Source: a virus (taxonomy: Duplodnaviria; Heunggongvirae; Uroviricota; Caudoviricetes). From it: a stretch of 19,959 bases of DNA. Within the stretch, counting starts at the first letter, position 1; the number at the start of each line of letters is the position of its first letter. The stretch covers positions 1 to 19,959 of the IMG/VR virus record IMGVR_UViG_2585427777_000028. One strand, given 5' to 3'. The notes beneath the pieces are model-generated. The model did not search any database and was not told the DNA's origin. It was given only the letters and a program-made list of their open reading frames with translations. Of this stretch, positions 1-16,955 are shown piece by piece. The translations under genes were made by a program, and so were the position numbers.

Positions 1-330
1 TCACTTCAGCGGGTAGTCATCAAACTCACCATAACGCACTTCGTTGATGATGTACGTGATCACCAAAAATATCGCATCCGGACTAGTTCCATCTTCATGC
101 GCAGGCATATGTTCATGCCTACCTGTCTGCAAACCAGTAATAAGCCATTACAGGGTGATAGTGATGCATCAACTACGTTAAGCGCAGAGAAATGATGCAG
201 TGGTGGGCGGATTGGCTTGATGAAAAGGTGGAGTGATCCACCTTAACCACTATCGAAGATCACAAAGCCTTGCAATCCAGTGCAAAGCTTTGTGTGTCTC
301 AGTTTTGTTTCATCGGTAATTATGTGTTCG

Positions 331-618
331 CTACGATGCAAGAATCCATACCAATAAGCATCCGATAATTGGGAAAGAAAAATCCATCAGGCTTGCCACA
401 TCCCAAGCGCGCGGATCAAAACCGCCCCACCACGGCATGTTAATCCGCTTGCCATGACCAAACATTTCAATCCAGCGATATTCTGCCTGGGTGTGTTCAC
501 GAGCAATGAAGAACGTACAACCGGCTATCGCACCGTAAGCCCAGTTTCCGGTAAAAATACCACCCAGTACCTGTGCGACCACAGCGCAAAGTGCGTGATG
601 AATTGGGGTTTTATCCAT
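331..618 (-). CDS. small hydrophobic (probable inner-membrane) protein, unknown function
   Basis: 95 aa ORF with two hydrophobic segments. Its ATG sits directly after the tailspike stop (TAGATG on the - strand), suggesting translational coupling. No family recognised. Confidence 0.45.
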   Translation of the reverse strand: MDKTPIHHALCAVVAQVLGGIFTGNWAYGAIAGCTFFIAREHTQAEYRWIEMFGHGKRINMPWWGGFDPRAWDVASLMDFSFPIIGCLLVWILAS

Positions 619-3213
619 CTACTCTATCTCTTTTGCTTTTTTAATTATCAATTCAAGCTCTGTTAAACGAGACTCAATGCGTTCACACCTTCTTCGCTGG
701 AATGCAGCCTCCAACCACAAACATTCATCTGGACGCAATCCCCAACGCTCACCAGCATGTACAACCAGTTCCGTGTCACCAGTATCGTATTCTTCAAAGT
801 ATTCGTGAACGATGTCTTCTCCTTCAGGGGATTTAGCTATAAATGACACCTTGCGCTGTGCCATTACAGGTTGGTACTCATCATCCCATTTATCATGACA
901 TAGCAAGCCAAATCTTGTTCCATCTATCCCCTTTGCAAGAAACGCATCTCTTACCTGCTGTGCAATTGCTCCGAAATGCCAACGAGCAGTATCCGAACCT
1001 TTAGCCTTAATATCGGACAACCACTGGTAAACGATAATATTTACGTCACCCCATGCGTCAAGAATTGCATCCTGATCCACCTCCATGATTTCTGAAAGTT
1101 GCTCTACTGTCAGTGGCTTTGTTTTCAATGTCTGGTCTGAAGTATTTATTGCCCCATTAGTTGCATATACTTGCGTCCACCGTTTAGATGATATCCCACA
1201 TGATGACGTATTATCTTTATTAGCACTTATATAGCCATTAACCTCCGCTGACTGACCGATATACAAATATGAAGATGTTGATAAGGGAGATTTAAATATC
1301 CATTGAGCATTGGTAAAGTCATAAATACCGGTATCACCTTTTTCACTAACATGAAAAGTTACATTCCGTAACGTATTCTTTGCATCATAACGGGCGGCTT
1401 GTGTTGTTGCCCTCGAAACAGTGAATCCTTTGTCATCAAGGTTTGCCTGCTCTATGACTTCACCACCAGGCATAATTTTACCAAGGCTTAACAAACCAGA
1501 GTTAGTGACAATATCATGGGTTGAATCAATGATAATACCAGGCTGATTTCTTGAGGTTGTTTTTACATGCATTACCTGTTGTGGCATTAATGTGTAAAAT
1601 GTAGTTTCTCGCCCACTATCACCATCTGGTATGCCATTTGTATTCCCCATTACAAGGTCATACCCACCTGCAATCATACGGAAAAACATTGCTTCTGGTT
1701 CATATGTAAGATTGCTAACATCTGGCGTTCCGGTATCATTTGGATCTGCTATTTCATAGGCTCTTCCTGCACCTGCCTGTATTTGCTGCACCCCAAGATA
1801 AACACCATCAAGTGTGTACTGATGCAAATATTTTCTGGTTGAAGAATATGCAGATCCAGCCTGACAAAAATAAATAGCAGTACCGTCACACGCAACTGTT
1901 TGCATATCCCTCACAAAATCGGCAATTTCAAATTCAAAAGTTGCTTCATTACGATAATCGTAATTGTACGCCTGCGGGTTAATAAATTTGCTGGTATCAA
2001 ATACTTTTACATAATAGCGAATTTGATCTGGTGTTGATGGGCTCTCACCAGGGCCAACATAACGTTTTGCTGTAGTAATCAGCCATCGACTCATAGGGTC
2101 GGTGCATAAAACATTTACCTGATTCTCGTAACCATCTTCCCATATGAGAAAAAACTCTGGTTCAATTTCACCACCATCAGTAGGGGTGAATCTGGTGATA
2201 TACTTTGCGCGATCCTCTCCTTTAGCTGTGCCAGCTAACCCCCATATCTGTAACTGGCCTCTTGTGTTACGAAAACCAACGCGCCCTATGGTTAAACCAA
2301 GACATTGATGTCCTAATTCTCTACTACCTTTAGTCTCCCAAAGAGGAGTTAACTCTTCATTCCCAAACCAATTATAAGCAACAACTTTATTAACTTCGTC
2401 ACCAGAACTAACGCTGCCACTCACATTTACCAAGCAATAAAGAACACTGTCATAATAATCAAGAACAGCACCCTGTATGACAGTATTTTTAATTGTTGCC
2501 AGTCGCAACCCTGACTTAACATGATTAGGAGTAGAAGGTCTGAAACCTGTATACATCCCCTTTTTTATAGTTTGTATTCTTTTTTCAGTAAAATCAGCAT
2601 CTGGCAGTAATCGATTCTCTGTGCGAAAATAGCCATTTATATACTTATTTCCATCAAAAACTTGATCTGTTATATATGTATTACCCCTTAGATCAACAAT
2701 CCTTCCTGTGATTTGTTTTTCTAACTCTTGAAAAGATAATGTGTCATCGGTGATGCCATCACCTTTTGCTCCCCATCCGCGAGGGTCAGCGTCATCACGC
2801 CACCGAGACATCTGCAATTCATGATATTTTTTAGCACCTTCCGGGTCTTCTAATTGTTGTCTTAATTGGTCAGGATCGTACTTAAGCACATTCGGAAAAT
2901 AGAACTGCTGCGTACCATATGCATCGTAAACAGCCATAGAATGGCCTTGCACGGTTACGAACTTGGCAATCTGTCCGTTATATACCGGATATCCAGCAGC
3001 GTTAATGATGATTGGTTGCGAAACAGGAACGTGAGAGCCATCTTCATTCTCTACATAAACCTGAATCTGGTTTTCAGGATTTACCGGGTCAGTGTCAATT
3101 TTACCGATATAAATTTTTCCATTTGCTACGGTTTTAAAAGAGCTAGCCATTGTGAAGAGTTGCGATGGCATACCTATCACAACATTTGGGGTTATATCAG
3201 GCATATTAGTCAT
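619..3213 (-). CDS. tailspike protein: P22 gp9-like N-terminal head-binding domain, pectate-lyase-like beta-helix, possible C-terminal intramolecular chaperone domain
   Basis: N-terminus [12 protein letters not shown]...[37 protein letters not shown]...[13 protein letters not shown]...VLKYDPDQ matches my recollection of the P22 tailspike head-binding domain. [12 protein letters not shown] is the usual opening of a pectate-lyase-3 beta-helix. The C-terminal region contains SDQTLK, resembling the Ser-Lys auto-cleavage motif of peptidase S74 chaperone domains. The track ORF runs to 3357 from a TTG; I take the ATG at 3211-3213 as the start (the ATG three codons further in is also possible). Confidence 0.8.
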
Positions 3214-3540
3214 CCTGTTTGAAGATTTAGATATTGAAGAAAACGGAATGACTGCAGACAAAGATGCAATTGTTTTGAAAAATAATCTTCTATTCACTTT
3301 AAAACTATGCAACATGAACAAAACAATTATTTTACAACAAACAAGAATCTTGATCAACAGACATATGCTTTATGCGTTTAATGCGTCATTTAAAAATAAC
3401 AAGTACTACTTTTATTCCTATCGTCCATGATTTTCATTTTCAAATATTATTAAATAACAATTCCTATTTATAATATCTGTCATTTAATTTGCTCCAGATA
3501 CAAGGAATCGCCGCAGCATGGCTACGGTGAATTTTGGGCA

Positions 3541-3565
3541 TAAAAAAACCCAGCCGAAGCTGGGT
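3541..3565 (-). terminator. rho-independent terminator downstream of ant
   Basis: On the - strand: ACCCAGC-TTCG-GCTGGGT hairpin followed by a run of seven U, about 19 nt after the ant stop codon. Confidence 0.6.
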
Positions 3566-3583
3566 CGTTGCGTTGGTTATCTG

Positions 3584-4462
3584 TCAGTAGTTATGAACTG
3601 AAGGAGGTAATTCTTTATTCTTAAGTCTCATCCATGCGGAAAGATTCGTTGGTCCGTCTGGCTCATTGATATCAACATCTCGTGTGTGGTTGATTAAAAC
3701 ATCTCTCGCCATATCGATAATACGGGAGAACTCATAACCGCAGTCATGACATCTGCCGGAATAGTTCGATTGAATTTGTTTTAGCGCCGGATACAGTTCG
3801 CGGAATAATGCCTGTGAGCGGTTGGCATAATCCCATAACCATACAAGGCTGTTTGCTTCTTTTGCAGAAAGCTCGTTGGTTTTCTTCTCTTGTTTGCCGA
3901 TGAACTCACCTTCAAGCACTACCCTGTGGATGTACTCTACAGCTTGCGGGATTTGTTCAATTGAAAGTTCATCAATGCTGTCAATACCAAAACGCTGATG
4001 AACCATATTGTATGCATCGTCATAGCGAAGTCCTTTCTTTCCTACCAGCATGTTTACTGCATCGCGTAGCGGTGTTCTTTCCTCAACAGTGGTTTTCTTT
4101 CCTTTAACATACTCGCCATGTTTGCGAATTGAAGGCAGAACTTCTGCTGTTACCCACTTGCGGAATTTGTGCGGGACTGAACCTTTATTGACTGCATCGC
4201 GGCAGCGCAGAACCAATGTATACATACCTGATTCGCTCACAATGCTTAGATTCTGCTCACCACCAAGGGTGTAACTTAAAGTTACTCCCTTTTCATCGTC
4301 ATCAAGTGCAGTAAGCGCCTTGCGTGAGTTAGTCAAAGCTAAAGCATCACAAACATCTTTAGCTACAAACCACGGCTCACCGCACTTGTTGATGACGCGG
4401 ATTTCACTGTCGCCGAATTTGAAGATGGTGAAATCGTTTTGTGCCTTTGCTATACTTTTCAT
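3584..4462 (-). CDS. ant: antirepressor Ant-like protein with BRO-N domain
   Basis: N-terminal [50 protein letters not shown] is a typical BRO-N motif. It lies downstream of arc on the same strand, as in P22 immI. Confidence 0.8.
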
Positions 4463-4524
4463 GTCAATATTTCCTAAGACGATTTGTTGATACCGAAGCC
4501 CTGACTGTTACCGCAGTTGGGGCT

Positions 4525-4728
4525 TCAACTTTCTGCTCTATCAGTTATATCTTTCCCTTCATATACTTCACCTATATTGCTAATGCTGGCAGAACATCCA
4601 AGATGCTTGTATCTTATGATGTCCAACACGCAGTCACTACACAGCATCCGACCTGTTTCTTTAGAGTAAATGTATGTTTGATCAGCGTCTGATTCGCTAA
4701 TGCCGCAGAAACAACATTCTTTACTCAT
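4525..4728 (-). CDS. small zinc-ribbon-like protein (CxxC...CxxC), unknown function
   Basis: 67 aa with Cys pairs (CCFCG ... CSDC). Sits between arc and ant; its start overlaps the arc stop. Confidence 0.5.
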   Translation of the reverse strand: MSKECCFCGISESDADQTYIYSKETGRMLCSDCVLDIIRYKHLGCSASISNIGEVYEGKDITDRAES

Positions 4729-4877
4729 ACCATTACCCCCTCTCTCTTCAAGCTGTCTATCAGGCGCTTGATAACCTCTGAGTTAAACGACCTGCACTCT
4801 TCCTTTGCCCTGCTACCTATAGCATCCTTTAACGACTGCGGCATCCTTACCAAAATCTTACTTATTTCTTTCTCCAT
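4725..4877 (-). CDS. arc: Arc-like ribbon-helix-helix repressor
   Basis: MPQSLKDAIGSRAKEECRSFNSEVIKRLIDSLKREG resembles P22 Arc (MPQFNLRWPREVLDLVRKVAEENGRSVNSEIYQRVMESFKKEG). Start taken at the ATG preceded by GGAGGG; the track start at 4913 is a TTG lying inside the promoter -10. Confidence 0.8.
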   Translation of the reverse strand: MEKEISKILVRMPQSLKDAIGSRAKEECRSFNSEVIKRLIDSLKREGVMV

Positions 4878-4913
4878 GTTACCCTCCACACAAACAACTC
4901 TTTTCGAATACAA

Positions 4914-4968
4914 AAGATAGCAAAGTGAGTATATCTAGTCAAAATTTTTTTGCATACACTTTGCTATC
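4914..4968. promoter_or_regulatory. divergent Pant / Pmnt control region with a 12-bp inverted repeat pair
   Basis: On the - strand, TTGACT, 17 nt, TATCTT lies upstream of arc. GATAGCAAAGTG (4916-4927) and its exact reverse complement CACTTTGCTATC (4957-4968) flank the region. Confidence 0.45.
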
Positions 4969-4991
4969 AAATTGAATACCAAAGGTGTGAT

Positions 4992-5240
4992 ATGGCAAAG
5001 GGTGTGTCAATTTCTCCAACTACGGTAAGAATCCCTGAATCTTTACGCGAGGCTCTTGCTGTCAGAGCATCAAAAAATGGTCGCTCTGTTAACTCCGAGA
5101 TCGTCATGATTTTGCAAGCCGCGATTGATGAAGATAGGTCGCCAAAGTCAGTTGAGTCATTTGCTCAGCAAGAAGCTGACAAATTCAAAGAGGCGCTGCT
5201 TGAGACGCTAAAGACCATGTATGCTAAGGATGAAAAATAA
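4992..5240 (+). CDS. mnt: Mnt-like ribbon-helix-helix repressor
   Basis: RIPESLREALAVRASKNGRSVNSEIVMILQAAIDE resembles P22 Mnt (the NGRS(V/M)NSE core is shared with Arc). ATG at 4992 is preceded by AAAGGTG. Divergent from arc. Confidence 0.8.
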   Translation: MAKGVSISPTTVRIPESLREALAVRASKNGRSVNSEIVMILQAAIDEDRSPKSVESFAQQEADKFKEALLETLKTMYAKDEK

Positions 5241-5776
5241 TGCTGCACACAATTCATTTCTTATGCCCCGTTAACACTGCCACTGTTGGGCAACTTCAGA
5301 ACCACTGTCTCACCGCATTATCTCAAGGCGCAACTGAATTAAATATCCATATATCAAGTCAGGGAGGGGAAACTGCCGCTGGCTTTACTGCGTATAACTT
5401 TCTTAAGTCACTCCCTGTTACCGTTAGAACTCACAACATAAGCAATGTTGAATCCATAGCTAATATCGTTTTCCTGGCTGGCTCAGAACGTTTCGCAAAC
5501 CCATTATCAAGATTCCTGTTACATCCTCTATTATGGTGCTTTGCCTCCCCAGCCGCCGACCATGCCAGATTGAGAGAGTACGGGAAATGCCTCGATAACG
5601 ATCTTGATCGCTTCGTTGAGACGTTCAATATCGACATCGGAACCCATATTAGGTGGGCATCCCTGATAGCAGACTCGACCATTTTGGATGCTAACAAGGC
5701 TCTTGAGCATGGCATAATTAATTCCATAAAAACTGCAAGGCTGGCATCCAATCAGGCAAACTGGTGGGTTGTTTGA
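5240..5776 (+). CDS. ClpP-fold (S14-like) serine peptidase
   Basis: IHISSQGGETAAGFTAYNFLKSLPVTVRTHNISNVESIANIVFLAGSERFANPLSRFLLHPL follows the ClpP core pattern (INSPGG...AG..IYD......V.T...GQAASMGAFLL.AG..GKR...PNSR.MIHQPL), with candidate Ser and His at the expected positions. Start overlaps the mnt stop (TAATG). Confidence 0.65.
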   Translation: MLHTIHFLCPVNTATVGQLQNHCLTALSQGATELNIHISSQGGETAAGFTAYNFLKSLPVTVRTHNISNVESIANIVFLAGSERFANPLSRFLLHPLLWCFASPAADHARLREYGKCLDNDLDRFVETFNIDIGTHIRWASLIADSTILDANKALEHGIINSIKTARLASNQANWWVV

Positions 5777-5805
5777 TGGGTAAATCATGATTACTCCTTA
5801 TAAAA

Positions 5806-5832
5806 AACCCACCTGACGGTGGGTTAATTTTT
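5806..5832 (+). terminator. rho-independent terminator after the mnt / ClpP-like operon
   Basis: AACCCACC-TGAC-GGTGGGTT hairpin followed by a T-rich run. Confidence 0.55.
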
Positions 5833-5915
5833 GCATTTACCTGGGCCATATTGACTACTTATAAAATGAGATCAATATTTAATCGCCCAATAACGGGTGT
5901 ATGTTGAGGTATATC

Positions 5916-6095
5916 ATGGCGAAAAAACCAGGTGAAAACACAGGAAAAAACGGCGGAATATACCAAGAAGTTGGCCCGCGCGGCGGTAAGAAAGACAATT
6001 TTGCCACCGTCAAGGACAACGAAAGGCTTCCACCAACAACAAAGCCAGGTCATGGCTGGGTATTAGATAAGCGAACTCCAGACAGCAAAAAGTAA
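5916..6095 (+). CDS. small Lys/Gly-rich hydrophilic protein, unknown function
   Basis: 59 aa (MAKKPGENTGKNGGIYQEVGPRGGKKDNF...) starting at the ATG preceded by GAGGT. Followed immediately by a terminator. Confidence 0.45.
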   Translation: MAKKPGENTGKNGGIYQEVGPRGGKKDNFATVKDNERLPPTTKPGHGWVLDKRTPDSKK

Positions 6096-6100
6096 TAATC

Positions 6101-6124
6101 AAGCCGGGTCACTCCGGCTTTTTG
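6101..6124. terminator. terminator hairpin between convergent genes
   Basis: AAGCCGG-GTCACT-CCGGCTT followed by TTTT on the + strand. The - strand gene's stop codon lies in the loop. Confidence 0.5.
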
Positions 6125-6474
6125 ATATGTCGCTCGCAGAACTCAACAAGCCTGCTCATTAAGTAGCAGTAAGTCTCGTTGGCTCTTCCTGGTTCAACAT
6201 CAACACCGACCCTTGAGCAGATATCGAATGCCATGTGAGCGCACTCATGGGCAATAGTAGATAGTTTGCCATTGAACACGCCTATCACATGCAAAACACC
6301 ATTCTCGCTGCTCATTGTATGAGACGCTCCGTTGGCATCCGAGTCCTGCACGTCCACACCAAGTTTTTGATGCAGGCGTTGCCATTCTGGAAAGTCTCTA
6401 CAAAACACAATTGTACCGCTCTCAAAGAGCGGAACGAGCATCTTTGGTACGTTTCCAATGTTAACTTTTTTCAT
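6109..6474 (-). CDS. small HExxH metallopeptidase-like protein (possibly ImmA/IrrE-type)
   Basis: Motif STIAHECAHMAF contains HExxH. Start taken at ATG (track M5) preceded by CAGGAT; the track start at 6486 is a GTG. Confidence 0.5.
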   Translation of the reverse strand: MKKVNIGNVPKMLVPLFESGTIVFCRDFPEWQRLHQKLGVDVQDSDANGASHTMSSENGVLHVIGVFNGKLSTIAHECAHMAFDICSRVGVDVEPGRANETYCYLMSRLVEFCERHIKKPE

Positions 6475-6504
6475 GGTATCCTGCACAAAACTAAGGAGGT
6501 TGGT

Positions 6505-6954
6505 GTGAGTGAAAAATTATCAGTTGAGATTTACAGGGATGCCAAAAAATTGATTAAAAAGGCATTGCTGATTTCCCTATCTTTGTTAGCCATTGCCATT
6601 GTTTATTTTGTGGCAGACAAAATCTATACAGAACAAAAAAATAGCAAAAAAAGCGCTGAACTGATTATGCGAGCCGAAAATGCTGTCAAGGGTACCCAAC
6701 CTAAGGTGTTCAATAGAACAGACCTTGGCGAAAGTCACTCTATTTCCATTTGGTTTATTAATGATTCAGATAAGCACATTCTTGTAGAAAAAAACGGTGA
6801 AAAATCGTTGTTTTCTACAGGAGGATATGTATCCGGTGATATCCATGCATATCATCAGGCCGGAAAGGCATGCGAAACCCTGTCTTTTTCTATGGATTCA
6901 AGTTCTGTGATATCCGCTTCTTGCGATTTTGATGATTATTACCTTAAAAAATAG
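6505..6954 (+). CDS. membrane-anchored protein of unknown function, at the position P22 uses for sieA
   Basis: GTG start 5 nt after AAGGAGG. N-terminal hydrophobic helix (ALLISLSLLAIAIVYFV) then a soluble domain. AT-rich. Divergent from the HExxH gene. The upstream 72 codons of the track ORF overlap that gene and are rejected. Confidence 0.5.
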   Translation: MSEKLSVEIYRDAKKLIKKALLISLSLLAIAIVYFVADKIYTEQKNSKKSAELIMRAENAVKGTQPKVFNRTDLGESHSISIWFINDSDKHILVEKNGEKSLFSTGGYVSGDIHAYHQAGKACETLSFSMDSSSVISASCDFDDYYLKK

Positions 6955-6971
6955 CCATCCATGGCGTCACC

Positions 6972-9140
6972 TCAATCCTGTGCCATTCCGCTTAGCGATG
7001 CCACAATCCCAGCCCTCGACAAACGCTGGAACTCTTCGTTTCCTAGTGCATCGCGAATTGCTTTTACGGCGGCCTTATTTGCCATAAATCTGCGTTCCGC
7101 CGCCGCTAATGCGCCATCACTTGCCCCAACTTTAACTGCCTTTGTCGCCTCTTGAACAGCCTTTTCAATAGCGTAACGACCACTTCTGGTTGCGGATAAT
7201 TTCGCTATCGATCCTTTTGCTATTGCATCAATTGCTCCACCTGCAGCGCCACCCACTATTGCTCCAATAACACCTCCTCCAGAGAACCCTGCGATAGCGC
7301 CAGCGGTTGGAAAAGCGCCAGACAATACGCTCTCTAAAACTGGATGAAGGCCATTCTCAAGAGTGCTAATGGCTGGCATAGAGCGCCCTGTTTGTTCAAC
7401 ATATCGAAGTGGCTTTGTTGCTGCTCTTGCAAGTTCTCCAAACCCCCTGGCAATCCTACCAAGCTCTGGAGAATATCGACTAATTGCCTTCACGTTTTGT
7501 GGGGTAAGAATAGTCGCGATATGCTTAATTCCAGCCTCTTCAGACTTACCTCCGCGTACCCCTTGCGATACCGCATCTTGTAATATTGATGCAATTGCTG
7601 GCGCGCGTTCCGACTCAGGTAGGGCGCTTATTATTTTATGGAACTGACCTGTTCCACTTTTTGCTGAACCCTGCAACGCCTTAGAGCCATTAGTTACCAA
7701 CTGATCAGTTGCAAGGTCTCTACCAAACGCTGCTTCAGCCTGTTCTTGTGCTGTAAATCTTGCTTTTGACAGATCATTAGCTTTTTGCCAGTCATCAAGA
7801 AAACCGCCATTTTGAGCCATTATGCGCATATCTTCCGTTGCTGCATCACGAAGCTCAGCCATGCGCCTTGCCGTATTTGCCTCACCAGACCTTATATACT
7901 TCTGCTCTGCGTCAGCAAGTTTACTTCGCCATGCCTTCATGGCATCAAACGTGATTCCTTTTTTACTAGTTTTAGCATAAGCAGATGCGAATTGTTTCAT
8001 CTCAGGAGTTAGCGGCATGCCGGCCAAAATATCACCCTGAATTGTAGCGTTCAGGTTTGACATTCTGGCCTTTGCGTCAGGCATCGTGGAGCGGACGCTA
8101 TCCCATGCGGCCTTTTCTGAATTTTTCATTTTATCAATACTTGCCAAAACCCTTTGTTTTATGGCTGCACTTTTTTCTGATGCAGTTCCTGCTTCAGCCC
8201 CAAACTCATCCAATGCTGAGTTAAATTTCGACTCTATTTCACTGAATGCTTTGGTGTGTGCATCCTGTGTAATTCCGGGCTTTGACGCCAGAATCCCCTC
8301 CGCCTGAGCAAGACCACGACTACCTGATCTCATGCCAGGAGTTAATGCGTTGATATCTATTCCAGCAGTATCTGCTGCTTTTGCTATTTCGTCTGACACA
8401 TTAGCTGACTGTCTGGCAATAATCTCTCTTCCTGTACCAGACTTTGCCATTTTCGAAACATCAGCAGCGGAATTTATTGCCCCGCCACCAAGAACTTGAG
8501 GTGATTTAGAGGTTAAGATCCTTCCAGCCCCAGAAAGTATCCCCTGAGCACCAATATTTATACCACCGTTAATGGCAGCATTTTGTGCAAAGTCGCCCTC
8601 CTGATTTGCAGCATCAGCAAGAGAACCTGCAATCATGTTTCCTGCGGAACCGATATCTCCAGCGAGCTTTGCTGGCGCTCCAGCAGCTTTTGCCGCTGTA
8701 CCAATTGGCAGGAGATACCCGCCAATTGTTTCACCGGCTTGCGCGTAATGGTCTGTCGGTCGATCGACTGGACGATAGACATCATCCAATACTTTTGGCC
8801 CACCAAGCCCCTGACTGATTGCATTAATCAGACTTGCGCCACCCTGTAATACGTCAAATGGTATGTTTACCAGACCACGACCAGCCTGTTCTGCAATTTG
8901 CCCTGCACTTTGACCACCTGTGAGCCAATCACCAGCTTGTTGCATCAATGATGGTTCTTCTTTCTGCTGCTGAGGTGGAGGGTATGCTGCATAAAACTGA
9001 TCTCTTGCTTCAGCCCATTTGTCACCAGCCTTAGGGGCAACAACCTCATCAAAATATTGCGCTTGAGCCTGTGCTTTCTGTTCTTCAGTTAACGCCTGAT
9101 ACTGTGGAGAAGCGATAACATCTTTCCATGCTTTAGCCAT
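6972..9140 (-). CDS. putative virion DNA-ejection (injection) protein
   Basis: 722 aa with a Gly/Ala-rich hydrophobic C-terminal segment ([36 protein letters not shown]). Lies just upstream, in transcription order, of the immI and tailspike region, where P22-like phages carry ejection genes. Assigned by position and composition, not by recognised homology. Confidence 0.5.
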
Positions 9141-9997
9141 TAATCACCCCATAAAGACGAGAAACCGGACTTATTGCTGTCGCTTCCTGATTTTCGCTCA
9201 CTAACATATGTGTCATAACCTGATGAACTATATCCCATTGATTCAGCCTCCCTTGCTGCAACCTTTTGAAATACAGAATATTGCGATCGGATTTCAGATA
9301 ACTGTTTTCTGACGACCTCTTCAGGCTGTGTTATATCGAGTTTCGCGATCAGGTTTTCCAGTTTTTGGCCTTCAGCATTGGAGAGGCTACCCATACCTCG
9401 CATAGTCTGCACGTTCTGGACAAACGCACCCGACTTTAATTCTTCTATCGCATTACGGTTTGCAAGCCCTTCAGCACTTGTGAAGCCATCTATATTTCTT
9501 CCTTCGAAGCGACCGATACCTTCAAGCTCCTTCTTACCAAGCAAAGAATCTATTTTCTCTATCCCTCGCTCACCAGTAATCAACGCATTGTTGTAATTAT
9601 TGTTGCCATCAAGCCATCTCTTAGCCTGAGACATTCTGGCTGACGTTGCAGCTTTACCGGTTAGAGGATCAATTCCCGTCGCTGCTATCTGTGAGTTAAG
9701 AGACAAAACATCCATATCCTGAAGTTGTCCTGCTCTTTCAAGGGCCGCCTGTGACTGCTTAAACACATACTTGTCGTGATTCAGTCTTGCCATTTGAGCC
9801 TTATAGGAAAGATCCTGCCCCCTAATAGCCCTCGCATTCGTCATGTCATTATTGCGAATGGTTTCGTTAATTCTTTGCTGCTCCTGCTGGCGACCAACCA
9901 TCTTGTCCTGAACAGCAAACGCCTTTTCTGGCCCAAGCGCACCGAGAGACATCGTAGTCAGCATGTGTGATAGTTGTTCATCTGACCAGATAGCCAT
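9140..9997 (-). CDS. putative virion DNA-ejection protein
   Basis: 285 aa; its stop overlaps the start of the 722-aa gene (TAATG). Gln-rich with coiled-coil-like stretches. The true start may be an internal Met because the upstream fragment overlaps it. Confidence 0.45.
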
Positions 9998-10230
9998 TGC
10001 TGACCAAGCGTTGGTGCGATTGTTGCTAACTGATTACCGGTTGCAGTGGAACCCAATCCACCTGTTGCTTCCGCTGCCGCCAGACTCTGATAGCGAGCCT
10101 GACCAGCAAGATCTTTGTACTGCTGAGAGTTGTAATACTGGTTAAGTGCCTGACCTTGCCCTTCCAGAGACGATAAGTTCTCGAGGCTGCCGACATACTT
10201 ATCAGCCAGAGGAGTATTCGATCTGTTTTC
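9958..10230 (-). pseudogene. 5'-truncated gene fragment (C-terminal ~90 codons of a virion gene) abutting the O remnant
   Basis: A - strand frame with no start codon reads ...[83 protein letters not shown]. It begins exactly where homology to O ends. Confidence 0.35.
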
Positions 10231-10424
10231 TTATTGAAGCCATATGTTTTCCGGACATAGGCCAGCATAACTTTCAACTGGCGAGCGGTTAAATCGGCAC
10301 TTGCGATAGCTTCCAGCAGCTCGTTAGCGAATCTGGTGTAACCATCATCGATATCAGCCACTCTTAGCTCCTGTTCGGCAAAGTTACCTCTGCCGAAGTT
10401 GAGTATTTTTGCTGTATTTGTCAT
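10026..10424 (-). pseudogene. O: truncated replication initiator O (N-terminal ~70 codons only)
   Basis: MTNTAKILNFGRGNFAEQELRVADIDDGYTRFANELLEAIASADLTARQLKVMLAYVRKTYGFNKKTDRI closely matches my recollection of the lambda O N-terminus. After about codon 70 the frame reads unrelated sequence to a stop. Confidence 0.7.
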
Positions 10425-10458
10425 AATGACCCCTGTGGATTGATCCAGTCTTTCTACA

Positions 10459-10737
10459 TCAGGCCTCGAAGAATTCGCCGTTCTTCGGGGCTTTTTCTTT
10501 TGTCAGCATTCTGGCTACTTTCTTAGCCAGTTCCGCCAACTCCTCGTCTTCAACACCCCATTCAAGAACAGCCAGAAGCATTCCCATTTTTGGGATGAAG
10601 CTGTCTTTCCATCGCGAAATTTGCGATTCATTAATCCCTAACGCGTCAGCAACCTTTCGCTGACCACGTACAGCAATTCGATTCAGGATGTTGCTTGTAA
10701 TTGCATTCGCTTTCTTGCGAGTACTTGTAAGTTGCAT
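10459..10737 (-). CDS. cII: CII-like transcriptional activator
   Basis: ILNRIAVRGQRKVADALGINESQISRWKDSFIPKMGMLLAVLEWGVEDEELAELAKKVARML resembles lambda CII (...SQISRWKRDWIPKFSMLLAVLEWGV...). Start taken at the ATG preceded by AAGGAAA; the longer track ORF would run through the nut site. Confidence 0.85.
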   Translation of the reverse strand: MQLTSTRKKANAITSNILNRIAVRGQRKVADALGINESQISRWKDSFIPKMGMLLAVLEWGVEDEELAELAKKVARMLTKEKAPKNGEFFEA

Positions 10738-10794
10738 ATGTAAGTATTTCCTTAACAAATAAGAAGTTATGCGCATCAACTTATGCGCGTTGTA

Positions 10795-10839
10795 TTCCCG
10801 CATTTCGGCGGGAATGAGGACCATGACTGTTAAAGAGCG
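10795..10839 (-). promoter_or_regulatory. nutR-like site (boxA + boxB) between cro and cII
   Basis: On the - strand: CGCTCTTTAACAG (boxA-like, rrn-type), a 12-nt spacer, then the hairpin TTCCCGC-CGAAAT-GCGGGAA. Confidence 0.55.
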
Positions 10840-10846
10840 GTGTTAC

Positions 10847-11074
10847 TTATGCTGCCAGAAGGTTCTTTTTGCTTATTTCAAGCATTTCGCTTGCTTGATA
10901 TTTGCCACCAGAAATCTCTTCGATTTTTGATGCGTATTTCGTTTTCCCAAAAAACTCAGTCTTAGGGAGGAAGCCGTTTTTGAGCCACTTATAGACAGCC
11001 CTTTCACTAACTCCACAAGCCTTCGCAACTTCAGGGATGCCGACACCTTTAATCGGCTCATCAAGATTTTGCAT
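10847..11074 (-). CDS. cro: Cro-like helix-turn-helix repressor
   Basis: 75 aa with HTH GIPEVAKACGVSERAVYKWLKNG. Divergent from cI, followed by nutR and cII. RBS AAGGA. Confidence 0.7.
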   Translation of the reverse strand: MQNLDEPIKGVGIPEVAKACGVSERAVYKWLKNGFLPKTEFFGKTKYASKIEEISGGKYQASEMLEISKKNLLAA

Positions 11075-11089
11075 AGGAATATCCTTTTT

Positions 11090-11152
11090 CGTACTTTCAG
11101 TACGTATTATGGTTGAACTGAAAGTTTTTGCAAGTGCTTTAGTATCGTACTC
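11090..11152. promoter_or_regulatory. cI-cro intergenic operator/promoter region (PR on the - strand; three dyad-symmetric elements)
   Basis: Dyads GTACTttcAGTAC (about 11091-11103), AACTgaaAGTT (about 11116-11126) and AGTAtcgTACT (about 11141-11151), centres roughly 24-25 bp apart. On the - strand TTGCAA, 17 nt, ATAATA fits a PR driving cro. Confidence 0.4.
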
Positions 11153-11860
11153 ATGGTTCAGAATGAAAAAGTGCGCAAAGAATTCGCCCAGCGGCTAGCG
11201 CAAGCCTGTAAAGAAGCTGGTCTTGATGAACATGGTAGGGGGATGGCCATAGCCCGTGCCCTTTCTCTTTCGTCCAAAGGCGTTAGCAAATGGTTTAATG
11301 CTGAGTCTTTACCGCGTCAGGAAAAAATGAATGCGCTTGCGAAATTTCTAAACGTTGATGTTGTTTGGCTTCAGCACGGCACTTCGTTAAATGGAGCGAA
11401 TGATGAAGATACTCTTTCATTTGTTGGCAAATTAAAAAAAGGGTTAGTGCGCGTGGTTGGTGAGGCAATTCTTGGTGTTGATGGTGCCATCGAGATGACC
11501 GAAGAGCGCGATGGGTGGCTCAAAATTTATAGCGATGATCCAGATGCCTTTGGCCTTCGTGTGAAAGGAGACAGCATGTGGCCCAGAATAAAATCAGGAG
11601 AATATGTACTCATTGAGCCTAACACCAAAGTATTCCCGGGTGATGAGGTGTTTGTCAGAACCGTTGAAGGACACAACATGATCAAAGTTCTTGGCTATGA
11701 CAGAGACGGAGAATACCAATTTACAAGCATCAACCAGGACCACAGGCCAATAACGTTGCCTTATCATCAAGTAGCAAAGGTGGAGTATGTGGCTGGTATT
11801 CTGAAGCAATCTCGCCATCTGGATGACATCGAGGCAAGGGAGTGGCTGAAAAGTTCGTGA
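11153..11860 (+). CDS. cI: CI-type prophage repressor (N-terminal HTH, C-terminal S24 LexA-like peptidase domain)
   Basis: C-terminal region contains GDSMWP (S24 catalytic serine motif). N-terminal HTH-like region. Divergent from cro. Confidence 0.85.
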   Translation: MVQNEKVRKEFAQRLAQACKEAGLDEHGRGMAIARALSLSSKGVSKWFNAESLPRQEKMNALAKFLNVDVVWLQHGTSLNGANDEDTLSFVGKLKKGLVRVVGEAILGVDGAIEMTEERDGWLKIYSDDPDAFGLRVKGDSMWPRIKSGEYVLIEPNTKVFPGDEVFVRTVEGHNMIKVLGYDRDGEYQFTSINQDHRPITLPYHQVAKVEYVAGILKQSRHLDDIEAREWLKSS

Positions 11861-11996
11861 CTTCATCGTCACATAGCTGGTAACCAGTGGCCTGAAGAGA
11901 CGTTTGGGTGATGTACATAGCATTTCTGGATAAAAATACAGATTCCCTTTATGGGAAATGAATCTATAATTCCCAAAGAGGGAACAAAATCGGATT

Positions 11997-12284
11997 ATGA
12001 AGGTCTTAAACGTAGAGAAGCTTCACAGTTTTAGCCGGAAGCACAATCAGGCCAAGGGGGCTTTAGACTCTTGGTATGATGAAGTGATAAGAGAAAACTG
12101 GAAAACGACTCAAGACATACGGAATAGATTTAATTCTGCCGACTTCCTTCCTAACAACAGGGTAATTTTTAATATAAAAGGCAATAACTATCGGCTCGTT
12201 GTCCAAGTTGTTTACCAGGCAGGAATGGTCATAGTTGAAAGAGTTGGAACTCATGCAGAGTACGACAAGTGGAGGCTTAAATGA
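11997..12284 (+). CDS. higB: HigB-family toxin (RelE-fold mRNA interferase)
   Basis: NRVIFNIKGNNYRLVVQVVYQAGMVIVERVGTHAEYD parallels E. coli HigB/YgjN (HYVFNVGGNELRVVAMVFFESQKCYIREVMTHKEYD). The toxin is encoded first, as in higBA. Confidence 0.8.
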   Translation: MKVLNVEKLHSFSRKHNQAKGALDSWYDEVIRENWKTTQDIRNRFNSADFLPNNRVIFNIKGNNYRLVVQVVYQAGMVIVERVGTHAEYDKWRLK

Positions 12285-12937
12285 ATCGAACTAGCTGGCG
12301 CATCATTAAAAATAGTGAAGAGCATGCTGCAGCTATGGAAAGGCTCATTGAACTTGCGTCTAGTGATTTACAACCTGGAACTGAAGATTTTGATGAGTTT
12401 GAACTACTAGGCTTGCTTATCGAGCACTATGAGTCACGCGAGTTCCCTATGGACAAGCCAGATCCCATAGAAGCAATCAAGTTCCGTATGGATCAACAAG
12501 GCCTCTCTTATGCCGATATGAAACAATACATTGGCTCAGCATCTAAAGTATCTGAGGTCTTAAATCGTAAGCGTCCATTAAGTCTTTCAATGATCCGTAG
12601 ACTACATGACGGACTTGGAATTCCTGCAGATATCTTAATTCAAGATATGAGCGCAATTGAATGGAGCCTAGTTGACGCAGAGGAAGAAGAAACAGCCATG
12701 ACTAGCGTCATTGCTCGGTGTGAGTCAGCCGTCACATCACCTTCTGCTTATTTCGCTGAAAAGGCTACAGAATCTTACTTTTCAAAAATGTTGTTCAGCG
12801 CAGTAAGGGGTAATGGCAAATGCAAAGAAAAACGGAATGTTTTTTCTTTGATAAGTAACTTGTCATCAAGTTTCACAGCGGCTAGCAACCTGAATGACGA
12901 AATGACTTCTGACGGAAATTACTTATTATTACCATGA
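12281..12937 (+). CDS. higA: HigA-like antitoxin (HTH) with a ~90 aa C-terminal extension, candidate chaperone-addiction region
   Basis: HTH segment LSYADMKQYIGSASKVSEVLNRKRPLSLSMIRRLHDGLGIPADILI is typical of HigA. Start overlaps the higB stop. At 218 aa it is much longer than usual HigA; the tail is Ser-rich and low-complexity. Confidence 0.75.
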   Translation: MNRTSWRIIKNSEEHAAAMERLIELASSDLQPGTEDFDEFELLGLLIEHYESREFPMDKPDPIEAIKFRMDQQGLSYADMKQYIGSASKVSEVLNRKRPLSLSMIRRLHDGLGIPADILIQDMSAIEWSLVDAEEEETAMTSVIARCESAVTSPSAYFAEKATESYFSKMLFSAVRGNGKCKEKRNVFSLISNLSSSFTAASNLNDEMTSDGNYLLLP

Positions 12938-13338
12938 AAATTGAACTCATTAGCAAAAAAGTTGAACGCTTGGTTATGACACGGCTAGAAGGCGATTCAA
13001 CAGCAAAAAAAGCCATAAAAACAACCGTTAATCTAAATAATGAACTCTACACTAATGTGAAGGATTCAAAGCTATTTAGAGTGAGATATTTTGCCTCCGT
13101 AACTATTGAAGGCAGGCTTGAGATGGACATCACATACGACTTTGACTTCCGGTCAGAAGATGATTTTTCTCATGAAATGGCAAAATCATATGAGGTAAGG
13201 TCCATTGCTCCCAATATGGCATATCCCTATATAAAAACATATGCCGAGCAAATTATCCTCATGTCAAACCTTGGTAGGTTCACTCTGCCTTATTTTGATT
13301 TCTTGGCCAATCCCATGGAAACGAACAGTAATAAGTGA
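12934..13338 (+). CDS. SecB-like chaperone, proposed third component of a TAC module
   Basis: APNMAYPYIKTYAEQIILMSNLGRFTLPYFDFLAN parallels the E. coli SecB segment [36 protein letters not shown] (shared PN..(F/Y)PY.(R/K) and hydrophobic pattern). Start overlaps the higA stop (ATGA). Confidence 0.55.
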   Translation: MKIELISKKVERLVMTRLEGDSTAKKAIKTTVNLNNELYTNVKDSKLFRVRYFASVTIEGRLEMDITYDFDFRSEDDFSHEMAKSYEVRSIAPNMAYPYIKTYAEQIILMSNLGRFTLPYFDFLANPMETNSNK

Positions 13339-13344
13339 AATTCC

Positions 13345-13373
13345 CCCCCCGGCCTCAGCGCCGGGTTTTCTTT
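13345..13373 (+). terminator. rho-independent terminator ending the cI-higB-higA-chaperone transcript
   Basis: CCCGGC-CTCAGC-GCCGGG hairpin followed by TTTTCTTT, directly after the chaperone stop. Confidence 0.55.
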
Positions 13374-13548
13374 GCCTCACGATCCCCACACCTAAAAACA
13401 CATAACCAATTGTATTTGTTGATGTAACTTGCTAAACCATGCAGTTCTGATCCCTGCCGCATAACCTTCATCAGCCACATTTTCAAAAATAAATTTCCTT
13501 ATATATCAGAATCATACTTCGTATAGTTAATAAATCACCAAAATTCGT

Positions 13549-13588
13549 ACCAATAGTTCTTGATAATGTCGAACTATTGGTTCATTAT
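13549..13588 (+). promoter_or_regulatory. candidate PL/OL region
   Basis: ACCAATAGTT and its reverse complement AACTATTGGT flank TTGATA, 17 nt, CATTAT. The arms resemble the AACTnnnAGTT dyad in the cI-cro region. Confidence 0.3.
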
Positions 13589-13634
13589 TGTCGCATCAGC
13601 AGGACGCTGGTAGCCAAACGGAACAGATTGGCAG

Positions 13635-13676
13635 GCTCTTTAACATTGATGGGATTGTCCCGCCGAAATGCGGGAA
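13635..13676 (+). promoter_or_regulatory. nutL-like site (boxA + boxB)
   Basis: GCTCTTTAACA (boxA-like), a 12-nt spacer, then hairpin TCCCGC-CGAAAT-GCGGGA. This is 19 of 20 identical to the nutR hairpin on the other strand. Confidence 0.55.
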
Positions 13677-13782
13677 CCAAAGAGTAGTTGGCTTTGGGGT
13701 GACGTGAAGTGCAGCTGCACGACGGCAACCGGAAGATAAGCACCCGGCGCGTCACCGCCAAAGTCAATCATCGGAGGTCAAC

Positions 13783-14082
13783 ATGACAGTAGTCATTACA
13801 TATCTTGCTGACGATAACGCCAGAAATCGCCGCAGAGCACGCAGACAGGCTCAACGTGAACAGGCAATGCAAGAGCAGCGACTGGCGCGAAAAATTGCGC
13901 TAAAGCTCTCTGGTTGCGTCAGAGCAGACAAAGCAGCATCACTAGGAAGCCTTCGCTGCAAGAAGGCAGAAGAAGTTGAGCGTAAACAGAACCGTATTTA
14001 CTACCGCAAGCCACGCAGTGAAATGGGTGTGACTTGTGTTGGTCGCCAGAAAATGAAATTAGGCAGCAAACCACTTATTTGA
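13783..14082 (+). CDS. N: N-like transcription antiterminator
   Basis: Arginine-rich motif near the N-terminus (DNARNRRRARRQAQREQ). First gene downstream of nutL, transcribed away from cI. RBS GGAGG. Confidence 0.6.
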   Translation: MTVVITYLADDNARNRRRARRQAQREQAMQEQRLARKIALKLSGCVRADKAASLGSLRCKKAEEVERKQNRIYYRKPRSEMGVTCVGRQKMKLGSKPLI

Positions 14083-14090
14083 GGTGAGAT

Positions 14091-14561
14091 ATGACAAAAT
14101 CATGGAGCGTACCTTTTCCTGAATCAGAAACTGAACATGATGGAATGCCTGTTTTCTGGAGATTCCAGGCGACAGTTGAAGAAGATGGGATAAAAATATT
14201 CGCACTTCAATATATAGCTTTTCATCAGACAGAGCATTATGCATGGTTGGTTCCTGCGCATTGGATTGTTAATTTTAAACCAGCACCAAATCAGTGGTTA
14301 CAGGAATGGAAACAAAGGAGAAATAGATATGCAATTAAGAAAGTAGCAAAAAATGCAGAAAGATCTTTTGCATTCCCAACGAAGAAACTTGCCATTGAGA
14401 GTTTATTGCGCCGGAAGAAATACCATTTAATGAGAATCAAACAAGATTTGGCTGTTGTATCAACTCTTGTTGATGGGATGAAGAATATTGATACATCAAC
14501 ACCAGATATTGAATATAACTTTGGGCACAACCAAGAAACAGAAAATTGGGTATTTTATTAG
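14091..14561 (+). CDS. hypothetical protein, first gene after N in the leftward early operon
   Basis: 156 aa with RBS GAGGTGAG. No family recognised. Confidence 0.5.
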   Translation: MTKSWSVPFPESETEHDGMPVFWRFQATVEEDGIKIFALQYIAFHQTEHYAWLVPAHWIVNFKPAPNQWLQEWKQRRNRYAIKKVAKNAERSFAFPTKKLAIESLLRRKKYHLMRIKQDLAVVSTLVDGMKNIDTSTPDIEYNFGHNQETENWVFY

Positions 14562-14665
14562 TACGAGTAAGCACTGTGTATTCATTCCAACGAGTGAATA
14601 CACGGAGCAATGTCGCTCGTAACTAAACAGGAGCCGACTTGTTCTGATTATTGGAAATCTTCTTT

Positions 14666-14690
14666 GCCCTCCAGTGTGAGGGCCTTTTTA
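14666..14690 (+). terminator. rho-independent terminator (tL-like) upstream of cIII
   Basis: GCCCTC-CAGTGT-GAGGGC followed by CTTTTTAT. Preceded at about 14574-14605 by a separate 9-bp-stem hairpin (GTGTATTCA ... TGAATACAC). Confidence 0.5.
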
Positions 14691-14752
14691 TATGCATAAC
14701 AATAACGCTTCACTCGAGGCGTTTTTCGTTATGTATAAATAAGGAGCACACC

Positions 14753-14893
14753 ATGCAATATGCCATTGCAGGGTGGCCTGTTGCTGGCTGCCCTTCCGAA
14801 TCTTTACTTGAACGAATCACCCGTAAATTACGTGACGGATGGAAACGACTCATCGACGTACTTAATCAGCCAGGAGTTCCCAAAAATGGATAA
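14753..14893 (+). CDS. cIII: CIII-like protein (protects CII from FtsH)
   Basis: MQYAIAGWPVAGCPSESLLERITRKLRDGWKRLIDVLNQPGVPKNG is near-identical to my recollection of lambda CIII, but shorter at the C-terminus. RBS AAGGAG. Confidence 0.8.
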   Translation: MQYAIAGWPVAGCPSESLLERITRKLRDGWKRLIDVLNQPGVPKNG

Positions 14894-14999
14894 AACACTT
14901 ATGGCTATCCAGACTAAATTCACTATCGCCGCTTTTATTGGCGATGAAAAGATGTTTCGTGAGGCCGTCGAAGCCTACAGAAAATGGAGGTCAAAATGA
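14886..14999 (+). CDS. kil: Kil-like protein (host cell-division inhibitor)
   Basis: MDKTLMAIQTKFTIAAFIGDEKMFREAVEAYRKW matches my recollection of the lambda Kil N-terminus. Overlaps the cIII stop. Confidence 0.65.
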   Translation: MDKTLMAIQTKFTIAAFIGDEKMFREAVEAYRKWRSK

Positions 15000-15184
15000 T
15001 TCCGGTAGAACTGGCGAAAACCACAGAGTTAAGTCGATTAAAAAGAGAATATCACATTGCTGAGGCTCGTTACTGGCGTAAAGCGGGAGATAAATCAAAG
15101 AAACAATTTTGCTTATGGCAGGCACAAAGAGAGCGCATGAATGAGCGCGAATTTCTTTCCGCCCCATCCGAATTACCATTCTGA
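14996..15184 (+). CDS. hypothetical small basic protein
   Basis: 62 aa from the ATG preceded by GGAGG. Overlaps the kil stop (ATGA). Confidence 0.4.
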   Translation: MIPVELAKTTELSRLKREYHIAEARYWRKAGDKSKKQFCLWQAQRERMNEREFLSAPSELPF

Positions 15185-15192
15185 GGTGAATT

Positions 15193-15873
15193 ATGGGAAC
15201 TGCGACATTAATACTCGGTGAGTCTGGCACCGGAAAATCAACCAGCATGAGAAATATCAATCCAGAGGAAGCAATACTTATAAAACCAATAGGCAAGCCG
15301 CTACCATTTAAATCAAAAGACTGGCTTGCATGGGATGCCAGAGCAAAAAAAGGAACCGTAGTTACCACTGACAAATGGGACGTAATAGTTGCTGCAATTA
15401 AGCGTGCTCACGAATACGGAAAAAGAATCGTTATTGTTGATGACTTCCAGTATGTGATGAGCAATGAGTTTATGCGCCGCTCAGAAGAAAAATCGTTTGA
15501 TAAATTTACTGAGATAGGCCGCCACGCATGGGAGGTGATTAAGGCTGCACAGGATGCACCTGATGACCTGAGAGTCTATTTTCTTGCACATACCGAAGAA
15601 ACCCCTATGGGGCGCGTGAAAATGAAAACTATCGGCAAAATGCTGGACGAGAAAATCACTGTCGAAGGCATGTTTACTATAGTTCTTCGCACTCTTACCC
15701 GCGATGACCAGTTCTTTTTCACCACGAAAAACAACGGTGCAGACACTGTCAAATCCCCAATGGGAATGTTTGATTCCAATGAGATTGATAACGATCTCTC
15801 TTTCGTCGATGCCACTGTTTGTGATTACTACGGCATCAATAATGTTCATCAAATTAAGGAAAGCGCCGCATGA
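15193..15873 (+). CDS. Sak4-like RecA-fold ATPase (phage recombination protein)
   Basis: Walker A GESGTGKST and Walker B-like IVIVDD. About 226 aa, sitting where lambdoid phages carry recombination genes. Confidence 0.55.
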   Translation: MGTATLILGESGTGKSTSMRNINPEEAILIKPIGKPLPFKSKDWLAWDARAKKGTVVTTDKWDVIVAAIKRAHEYGKRIVIVDDFQYVMSNEFMRRSEEKSFDKFTEIGRHAWEVIKAAQDAPDDLRVYFLAHTEETPMGRVKMKTIGKMLDEKITVEGMFTIVLRTLTRDDQFFFTTKNNGADTVKSPMGMFDSNEIDNDLSFVDATVCDYYGINNVHQIKESAA

Positions 15874-16457: not shown

Positions 16458-16480
16458 TTATTGAAAATAAGTCTCCCATT

Positions 16481-16777: not shown

Positions 16778-16787
16778 GGAATTTACC

Positions 16788-16955
16788 ATGAGAGGACTTG
16801 CATACAATCCCGGCATTCTTCCGGCAGAAATGATTATTCGCCAACGCGTAAAGCCAATGCCATCGAGAGAGGAATTGCTTAAGAGAAATTCTTTTCCGTC
16901 AGTGAATCAAAACAAATATCTGAATGCGATGTGGCGCAAAGGAGGCAACCAGTGA
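16788..16955 (+). CDS. hypothetical small protein
   Basis: About 55 aa from the ATG preceded by GAGGA. Its stop overlaps the next gene's GTG start. Confidence 0.3.

Follow-up and report, generated by a model that had tools for sequence, protein, structure and literature searches.

A phage-borne member of a truncated ClpP paralogue family, coupled to mnt in a P22-like immI region

Introduction

What kind of peptidase subunit would a temperate phage keep directly behind its maintenance repressor gene, and what might such a protein do in a lysogen? This question is raised by positions 1 to 19,959 of the IMG/VR virus record IMGVR_UViG_2585427777_000028 (all 19,959 nucleotides analyzed here, hereafter the window), in which a gene for a 178-amino-acid (aa) ClpP-like protein (5240..5776, plus strand) follows a homolog of the phage P22 repressor gene mnt. 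A first-pass annotation of this DNA, made from the sequence alone, had described the protein as a ClpP-fold serine peptidase coupled to mnt and had suggested superinfection exclusion, abortive infection, or repressor turnover as its role. Until now, those ClpP paralogues that reshape ClpXP have been regarded as chromosomal features peculiar to a few bacteria. Based on open reading frame (ORF) calling, Pfam, AlphaFold2, Foldseek, and phmmer, we report that the window gene is a short ClpP paralogue gene (here, the clpP-like gene) that encodes a phage-borne member of the N-terminally truncated ClpP paralogue family typified by ClpP1 of Pseudomonas plecoglossicida (PpClpP1; PDB 9UXT). Its product is neither a canonical ClpP, nor a head protease, nor a known defense protein.

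Fold and Family Identity

The clpP-like protein matched the Pfam CLP_protease model with an E value of 2.2e-11 (44.4 bits versus a gathering cutoff of 20.2). A single-chain AlphaFold2 model, built on a 25-sequence family alignment, reached a predicted local distance difference test (pLDDT) value of 91.7 and a predicted template modeling (pTM) score of 0.88, and displayed the alpha/beta fold with handle region of an S14-type ClpP subunit. Foldseek aligned this model to the canonical ClpPs of E. coli, Listeria, and S. aureus with template modeling (TM) scores of 0.74–0.79, a probability of 1.00, and ~22% identity. Collectively, these observations bear out the ClpP fold that had been claimed. The best match among PDB structures was 9UXT (TM 0.91, root-mean-square deviation 2.0 Å, 38% identity), well ahead of all other PDB entries. 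Searches against 9UXT with the single sequence (phmmer; E 1.6e-35 over residues 3–175) and with a profile (E 2.9e-51) gave the same affiliation, while the NCBIfam equivalog and subfamily models for ClpP scored only 19–40 bits versus cutoffs of 228–361. Full-length similarity, a Ser-His dyad, a non-acidic residue at the third active-site position, and a truncated N-terminus were all found, placing the protein in the PpClpP1-like family. A HMMER scan of 1.84 billion representative proteins recovered 236 clusters of this family at E ≤ 1e-30; conservation was counted among 139 full-length representatives.

PpClpP1 lacks more than 15 N-terminal residues, has an active site composed of Ser73-His96-Pro, and assembles into a homotetradecamer with an axial pore of 42.7 Å (PMC12900304). 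Its peptidase efficiency is 13-fold below that of the canonical paralogue; replacing Ser or His by Ala abolishes activity, and changing the Pro preserves ~60% of it (PMC12900304). PpClpP1 does not bind ClpX and, on its own, degrades neither casein nor GFP-ssrA. It also joins canonical ClpP in a stable heterotetradecamer, in which peptidase activity is raised and ClpX-dependent degradation is raised slightly; deletion of PpClpP1 impairs growth and motility (PMC12900304). The window protein resembles PpClpP1 in its length class (178 versus 183 aa), in having neither the N-terminal axial loop nor helix A, in retaining the Ser and His of the triad but not its Asp, and in the handle-region motifs W99, D107-H108, E113, and D121. 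It differs in having Ser146 where PpClpP1 has Pro, and in its setting: the window gene is prophage-borne and joined to the mnt operon, whereas the Pseudomonas gene is chromosomal and stands alone. The likeness is one of sequence and predicted single-chain fold, and the tetradecamers are those of the Pseudomonas protein. In comparison, E. coli ClpP (MEROPS S14) shares the fold (TM ~0.75), the catalytic Ser and His, and the oxyanion-hole Gly-Gly, but is only ~23% identical and has ~26 N-terminal residues and an Asp171 that the window protein lacks.

The statement that no described system matched the gene thus needs to be divided. The family was characterized in 2026 as a truncated ClpP paralogue (PMC12900304), but we found no description of the phage gene. 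The paper on PpClpP1 (PLoS Pathog 2026) does not mention phages (PMC12900304), and the searchable literature yielded no description of the phage-borne branch, of its placement in moron slots, or of its fusion to the mnt operon. Likewise, the paper on P22 SieA does not mention a clpP-like gene. The ‘Gally’ prophage of strain LF82, in which mnt is induced 40-fold in macrophages, was also considered and has no clpP-like gene beside mnt.

Active Site and Missing Gate

Alignments place Ser72 and His95 of the window protein on Ser97 and His122 of E. coli ClpP, and G42-G43 on the oxyanion-hole glycines. Ser72, His95, Arg84, and Gly43 are invariant in the family (139 of 139 representatives), and the candidate Ser and His residues named in the first-pass annotation are therefore present. 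The third residue of the triad is not: the position of ClpP Asp171 is occupied by Ser146, and among the 139 representatives this column contains Gly, Ala, Pro, Arg, or Ser; members of the Pseudomonas clade have Pro there, and those of the phage clade have Ser or Ala. D145 and D150 were considered as substitutes for the triad Asp, and neither is conserved in the family. The annotation had held that the lack of a Ser-His-Asp triad would speak against its reading; taken literally, that objection applies, since the triad is absent from the window protein. By analogy with PpClpP1, where Ser and His alone support weak peptidase activity (PMC12900304), the absent Asp would nevertheless not make the protein inactive.

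Two family-specific features were noted near the nucleophile. Asn66 is present in 135 of 139 representatives, and residue 71, directly before the catalytic Ser, is Asp or Glu in 111 of 139; E. coli ClpP has Cys and Ala at these positions. Asn66 and the acidic residue before Ser may compensate for the absent triad Asp.

At the other end of the protein, ~26 N-terminal residues of E. coli ClpP, which comprise the axial loop and helix A, have no counterpart, and the first beta-strand of the window protein begins at residue 2. The ORF has no in-frame start further upstream and cannot be extended. The same truncation is observed across the 139 representatives, with a median N-terminal overhang of 8 residues in the family versus 26 in E. 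coli ClpP. The window protein thus has neither the N-terminal axial loops nor the helix A that form the pore gate and the contact to ClpX and ClpA. At the level of sequence, the family is defined by its Ser-His dyad and its absent gate, and the window protein is a typical member.

Coupling to mnt in immI

The gene upstream of the clpP-like gene (4992..5240, plus strand) encodes an 82-aa protein of the Arc/Mnt ribbon-helix-helix family (Pfam Arc, E 9.5e-11) that consists of a ribbon-helix-helix domain and a C-terminal coiled-coil tail. It aligns to P22 Mnt with 36% identity over 74 of its 82 residues, coiled-coil tail included, and is regarded as a Mnt homolog. The proposed start of the clpP-like gene on the mnt stop codon was confirmed: the ATG and the mnt TAA share one base (aaaTAATGctg), and a Shine-Dalgarno sequence (AAGGA) is located 9 nucleotides 5′ of the ATG, within the 3′ end of mnt. 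The expected terminator was found as well. A GC-rich stem-loop at 5806..5825, with an 8-bp stem containing five GC pairs and T-runs on both strands, begins 30 nucleotides past the end of the clpP-like ORF and is a bidirectional intrinsic terminator that marks the end of the mnt-clpP-like operon. Because the stem-loop sits at 5806–5825, the end coordinate of 5832 that had been given to the region takes in this terminator.

Divergent from mnt, on the minus strand, are a 50-aa arc homolog (4725..4877; Pfam Arc, E 8.5e-12), whose start is the ATG of the RefSeq annotation in identical prophages (L033 and L011), a 67-aa ORF (4525..4728), and the gene for the antirepressor Ant (3584..4462), which has Bro-N and P22_AR_C domains (Pfam, PHROG). 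This arrangement matches the layout of P22 immI. The arc-mnt intergenic control region (4916..4968) contains a perfect 12-nucleotide inverted repeat (4916–4927, GATAGCAAAGTG; 4957–4968, CACTTTGCTATC), the arms of which are 29 nucleotides apart and bracket a Pant-like promoter on the minus strand (4942–4914). With ribbon-helix-helix domains in both Arc and Mnt, the domains of Ant, the inverted repeat, and the promoter all in place, the immI context that had been proposed is well founded. Given the P22 layout, the inverted repeat is a candidate operator pair for the specificity type of the window’s Mnt and Arc. The 67-aa ORF between arc and ant is rich in Cys (CCFC...CSDC), matches PHROG 7150 over its full length, and overlaps the arc stop codon; P22 has no gene at that place.

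To place this junction in a wider context, the clpP-like gene and its upstream neighbor were located in 121 loci. The one-base overlap with the stop codon of a ribbon-helix-helix gene is present in 46 of the 48 loci with ≥95% protein identity and also in an 80%-identical relative (L077). These results answer the suggestion that mnt-peptidase pairs be sought in other prophages: they recur widely. Relatives with 69–75% identity have no overlapping ribbon-helix-helix gene upstream and lie outside immI, and such a gene is missing from all 67 loci below 60% identity; the sole overlap among them involves a 277-aa ORF that is not of the ribbon-helix-helix type, in a high-GC genome (L024).

Among the Mnt proteins coupled to the clpP-like gene, the N-terminal (DNA-binding) part is of at least six types, and one of these is almost P22 Mnt itself. 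Across 14 Mnt variants, the C-terminal ~12 residues are nevertheless shared, ETLK(T/K)(M/I)Y(A/G)KD(E/D/N)K, and the corresponding last ~12 codons of mnt, which contain the Shine-Dalgarno sequence of the clpP-like gene, always travel with that gene. The tail being common and the N-termini varied, the junction is thus passed on intact, whereas the part of mnt that sets operator specificity is swapped. In lambda-like phages and prophages, the complete ant-arc-mnt-clpP-like cassette was also found as an insertion separating tail genes L and K.

The ratio of nonsynonymous to synonymous substitution rates (dN/dS) is ~0.08 relative to both the 80%- and the 69%-identical relatives, and near-identical alleles vary at ten positions only, none of them catalytic. 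Judging from this ratio and from the invariant catalytic residues, the clpP-like gene is functional and under purifying selection. The window prophage itself has arisen by deletion and no longer carries genes for replication, lysis, packaging, or the head, yet the module is intact.

Distribution and Genomic Slots

The window gene was detected at ≥95% nucleotide identity in 128 of 5,426 complete E. coli genomes, and more divergent copies were detected in 48 further genomes; the copies in both sets are all chromosomal. It is also present in the sequenced phages phiv205-1, EC.P3, E212, and PhiR12_1/4/5, among which PhiR12_1 is a viable cassette-carrying phage that plates on E. coli K-12. Relatives with 50–60% identity are carried by prophages and oriented opposite to the lytic genes that flank them. 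Those of Klebsiella and E. coli lie between Rz/Rz1 and the terminase genes, where lambda has bor and one of the loci surveyed (L036) has iss; those of Proteus adjoin the N gene; and those of Chromobacterium lie between the lysis and tail genes of a P2-like prophage. Members from Pseudomonas and Azotobacter, including the clade of PpClpP1, are stand-alone chromosomal genes beside genes for KGG/CsbD-type stress proteins, and members from Massilia are beside purine-catabolism genes and a porin gene. The possibility that the PpClpP1 gene is itself prophage-borne was checked, and the gene lies outside any prophage. Collectively, the family comprises chromosomal lineages and one phage-borne lineage, and in Enterobacterales it occupies prophage moron slots. 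A short ClpP family without Asp and without a gate is thus now shown to have a phage-borne branch, which is present in ~2–3% of complete E. coli genomes. This branch is found in the positions of defense and conversion genes and, in one lineage, is hard-wired to the maintenance repressor of immI.

Several observations were made on individual loci. A conserved 182-aa protein is encoded 78 nucleotides upstream of the clpP-like gene, on the same strand, in a sub-clade with ~52% identity that occupies the bor/iss slot (L034, 4275–4823; also L107–L114), and is a possible partner gene. Pfam searches on the neighbors of stand-alone homologs, including the 182-aa protein, revealed no domains. The L034 prophage also carries a gene for a KAP-family NTPase between its holin and Q genes. 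A 238-aa Klebsiella homolog (P0027; L003–L006) probably has a wrong upstream start, given that sister proteins begin at the MIHTVHF start 52 codons downstream.

Proposed Mechanism

We tentatively favor, at slightly less than even confidence, a reading in which lysogens express this ClpP paralogue and it joins host ClpP in mixed tetradecamers, thereby altering the output of ClpXP and ClpAP, as the behavior of PpClpP1 would suggest. The gene would be transcribed with mnt from Pmnt, a promoter active in lysogens according to P22 genetics, and translated by coupling to mnt with the aid of its own Shine-Dalgarno sequence. Because of this transcription from Pmnt and this translational coupling, the protein would be present at a low and steady level in lysogens. 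Expression in lysogens also accords with the recurrent one-base overlap with mnt, with the opposite-strand moron slots of relatives, and with the orf59a and sieA genes that P22 carries in this slot. By reference to the 38%-identical PpClpP1, it would form a ClpP-type barrel without axial gating loops that is unable to dock ClpX or ClpA alone; its Ser72-His95 dyad without Asp would make for a weak peptidase when alone; and its heptameric ring would stack on a ring of host ClpP. Such a mixed complex would change the amount or the choice of proteins degraded by host ClpXP and ClpAP in the lysogen. The pay-off, a guess from the position of the gene, may be altered host proteolysis that, for example, protects from superinfection or tunes prophage and host regulators.

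That a paralogue can modulate the assembly of ClpXP has a precedent in ClpP2 of P. aeruginosa (PMC13056064). This atypical second ClpP is inactive with ClpX alone, forms mixed tetradecamers with canonical ClpP1, and modulates ClpXP output (PMC13056064). The analogy is one of function: ClpP2 is chromosomal and was not among the listed sequence or structure matches of the window protein, so it is not a close relative.

Several points weigh against mixed tetradecamers as the mode of action. Identity to the characterized PpClpP1 is only 38%, and the pairing with E. coli ClpP is drawn by analogy. The Pseudomonas gene is chromosomal and outside any prophage, so what it does there may not carry over to the phage gene. 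ClpX-dependent degradation was reported to change only a little in the heterocomplex (PMC12900304). Expression from Pmnt in lysogens is extrapolated from P22 to this allele, and the effect on host proteolysis may go either way. A broader proposition is more doubtful, namely that a truncated ClpP paralogue was taken up by temperate Enterobacterales phages as a moron expressed in lysogens, is wired to Mnt in P22-like and some lambda-like phages, and docks host ClpP to redirect ClpXP and ClpAP, in a previously unrecognized means of excluding superinfecting phages or controlling the phage’s own switch. In that case the ClpP core, rather than an adaptor or unfoldase, would be the site of viral takeover of host regulated proteolysis.

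Should the protein pair with host ClpP, prophages could alter the set of host and phage proteins broken down in a lysogen. Among the candidate substrates would be RpoS, ssrA-tagged proteins, LexA and repressor fragments, and lambda O, with bearing on the outcome of superinfection, the stability of prophages, and host physiology.

Alternative Explanations

The same observations were weighed against five other readings. The protein could be a stand-alone anti-phage effector, whose gateless barrel cleaves a phage or host target without host ClpP and so brings about superinfection exclusion or abortive infection. This we consider unlikely, although a role of that kind is plausible as a guess from the position of the gene. 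Homologs occupy defense and conversion slots (the sieA slot of P22 immI, the bor/iss slot, and the N-proximal slot) on the strand opposite to flanking lytic genes and are under strong purifying selection, and in L034 a KAP NTPase is encoded within the same prophage. P22 itself holds orf59a and sieA in the slot downstream of mnt, within a lysogen-expressed neighborhood. SieA is a superinfection-exclusion protein (PMC10883804). However, SieA is a membrane protein with its own gene and no relation to the window protein in sequence or fold, whereas the window gene encodes a soluble peptidase subunit coupled to mnt. Furthermore, no PADLOC-DB 2.0 model matched at E values up to 0.1, the members from Pseudomonas, Azotobacter, and Massilia are chromosomal and outside defense islands, PpClpP1 alone is a poor peptidase that leaves casein and GFP-ssrA intact, and our literature search turned up no challenge experiment. 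Somewhat less probable still is a poison or decoy subunit, which would share the assembly step of the mixed tetradecamer and have the opposite outcome: a ring unable to dock ClpX or ClpA would cap host ClpP, lower ClpXP and ClpAP capacity, and stabilize phage or prophage Clp substrates. The loss of the loops and helix A needed for unfoldase docking and the failure of PpClpP1 to bind ClpX are consistent with this, and mixed tetradecamers could be capped on one side only. Nonetheless, the one mixed complex that has been measured, that of PpClpP1, is more rather than less active, and the invariance of Ser72 and His95 (139 of 139) argues that catalysis matters, for which a pure decoy would have no need.

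The coupling to mnt might instead point to an accessory role in immI, with turnover of Ant, Arc, or Mnt fine-tuning the antirepressor switch, and both the recurrence of the one-base overlap (46 of 48 near-identical loci and the 80%-identical relative) and the movement of the cassette as a block into lambda-like tail regions favor such a link. It is nevertheless improbable: a near-identical protein is paired with at least six Mnt specificities and with differing arc and ant alleles, all 67 loci below 60% identity as well as those at 69–75% lack a ribbon-helix-helix partner and lie outside immI, and P22 runs immI without a clpP-like gene. Repressor turnover, as proposed earlier, is thus an unlikely core function, considering that homologs with 50–60% identity stand alone in prophages without immI at that place. 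A ribbon-helix-helix gene followed by a second gene that overlaps its stop codon is also the typical layout of a type II toxin-antitoxin pair, with the clpP-like protein as toxin and the Mnt-like protein as antitoxin, but this is very improbable and was rejected on the grounds that homologs are unpaired. Most family members have no upstream partner, so that pairing is not obligate; the ribbon-helix-helix protein is a full-length Mnt homolog with divergent arc and ant; no NCBIfam or PADLOC model for toxin-antitoxin or defense systems matched; and the chromosomal homologs are needed for normal growth rather than toxic. Just as slight is the chance that the gene is a relic or paralogue of a ClpP-type prohead protease without present function, even though the best PHROG match is ‘head maturation protease’ (PHROG 94, E 7e-21), one phage record annotates the gene as such, and these phage-encoded enzymes (PHROG 94, NF045542) have the ClpP fold. 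The NF045542 model of NCBIfam scored 49.3 bits versus a cutoff of 120, identity to phage head proteases is ≤32% with a far closer relationship to 9UXT, and the protein is not fused to a scaffold or capsid protein. The gene has mnt on one side and the injection-protein genes on the other, away from any head module and with no adjoining portal, scaffold, or capsid genes, and homologs lie between lysis and terminase genes on the opposite strand. Heads of the P22 type are built with a scaffold and need no protease. The low dN/dS and invariant catalytic residues indicate a maintained gene, one kept even in a defective prophage that has lost its head genes. The sub-cutoff score, the wrong context, and nearest relatives that are not phage proteases largely refute a head-protease origin, in agreement with the first-pass annotation.

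Other Features of the Window Prophage

The window prophage has no replication, lysis, terminase, or head genes, and a similar arrangement was observed in the bovine E. coli strains E92 and E94. A fragment of a gene-20-type injection protein (9140–9997, minus strand) abuts a truncated replication protein O (10026–10424, minus strand), which is followed by cII, a c2-type S24 repressor (11153–11860, plus strand), an N-like gene, abc2, and homologs of ea22 and ea8.5 (order to 19172). Directly downstream of the c2 repressor gene, at 11997–12937 on the plus strand, a gene for a 95-aa HigB-type RelE-like toxin (Pfam HigB_toxin, E 4.5e-30) overlaps a gene for a 218-aa HigA-like helix-turn-helix protein, forming a toxin-antitoxin pair inside immC.

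Three other small genes occupy the orf59a/sieA slot of P22 in the window (5859–6954). These encode a 64-aa YjzC-like protein (5901–6095, plus strand; PHROG 3202), a 125-aa protein (6109–6486, minus strand; PHROG 1365), and a ~109-aa protein with an N-terminal hydrophobic segment (~6625–6954, plus strand) that could be a SieA-like exclusion protein. Finally, the tailspike (619–3357, minus strand) combines a P22 head-binding domain with an endosialidase N-terminal extension and an S74 intramolecular chaperone domain, which suggests a P22-like phage specific for a polysialic-acid (K1-type) capsule.

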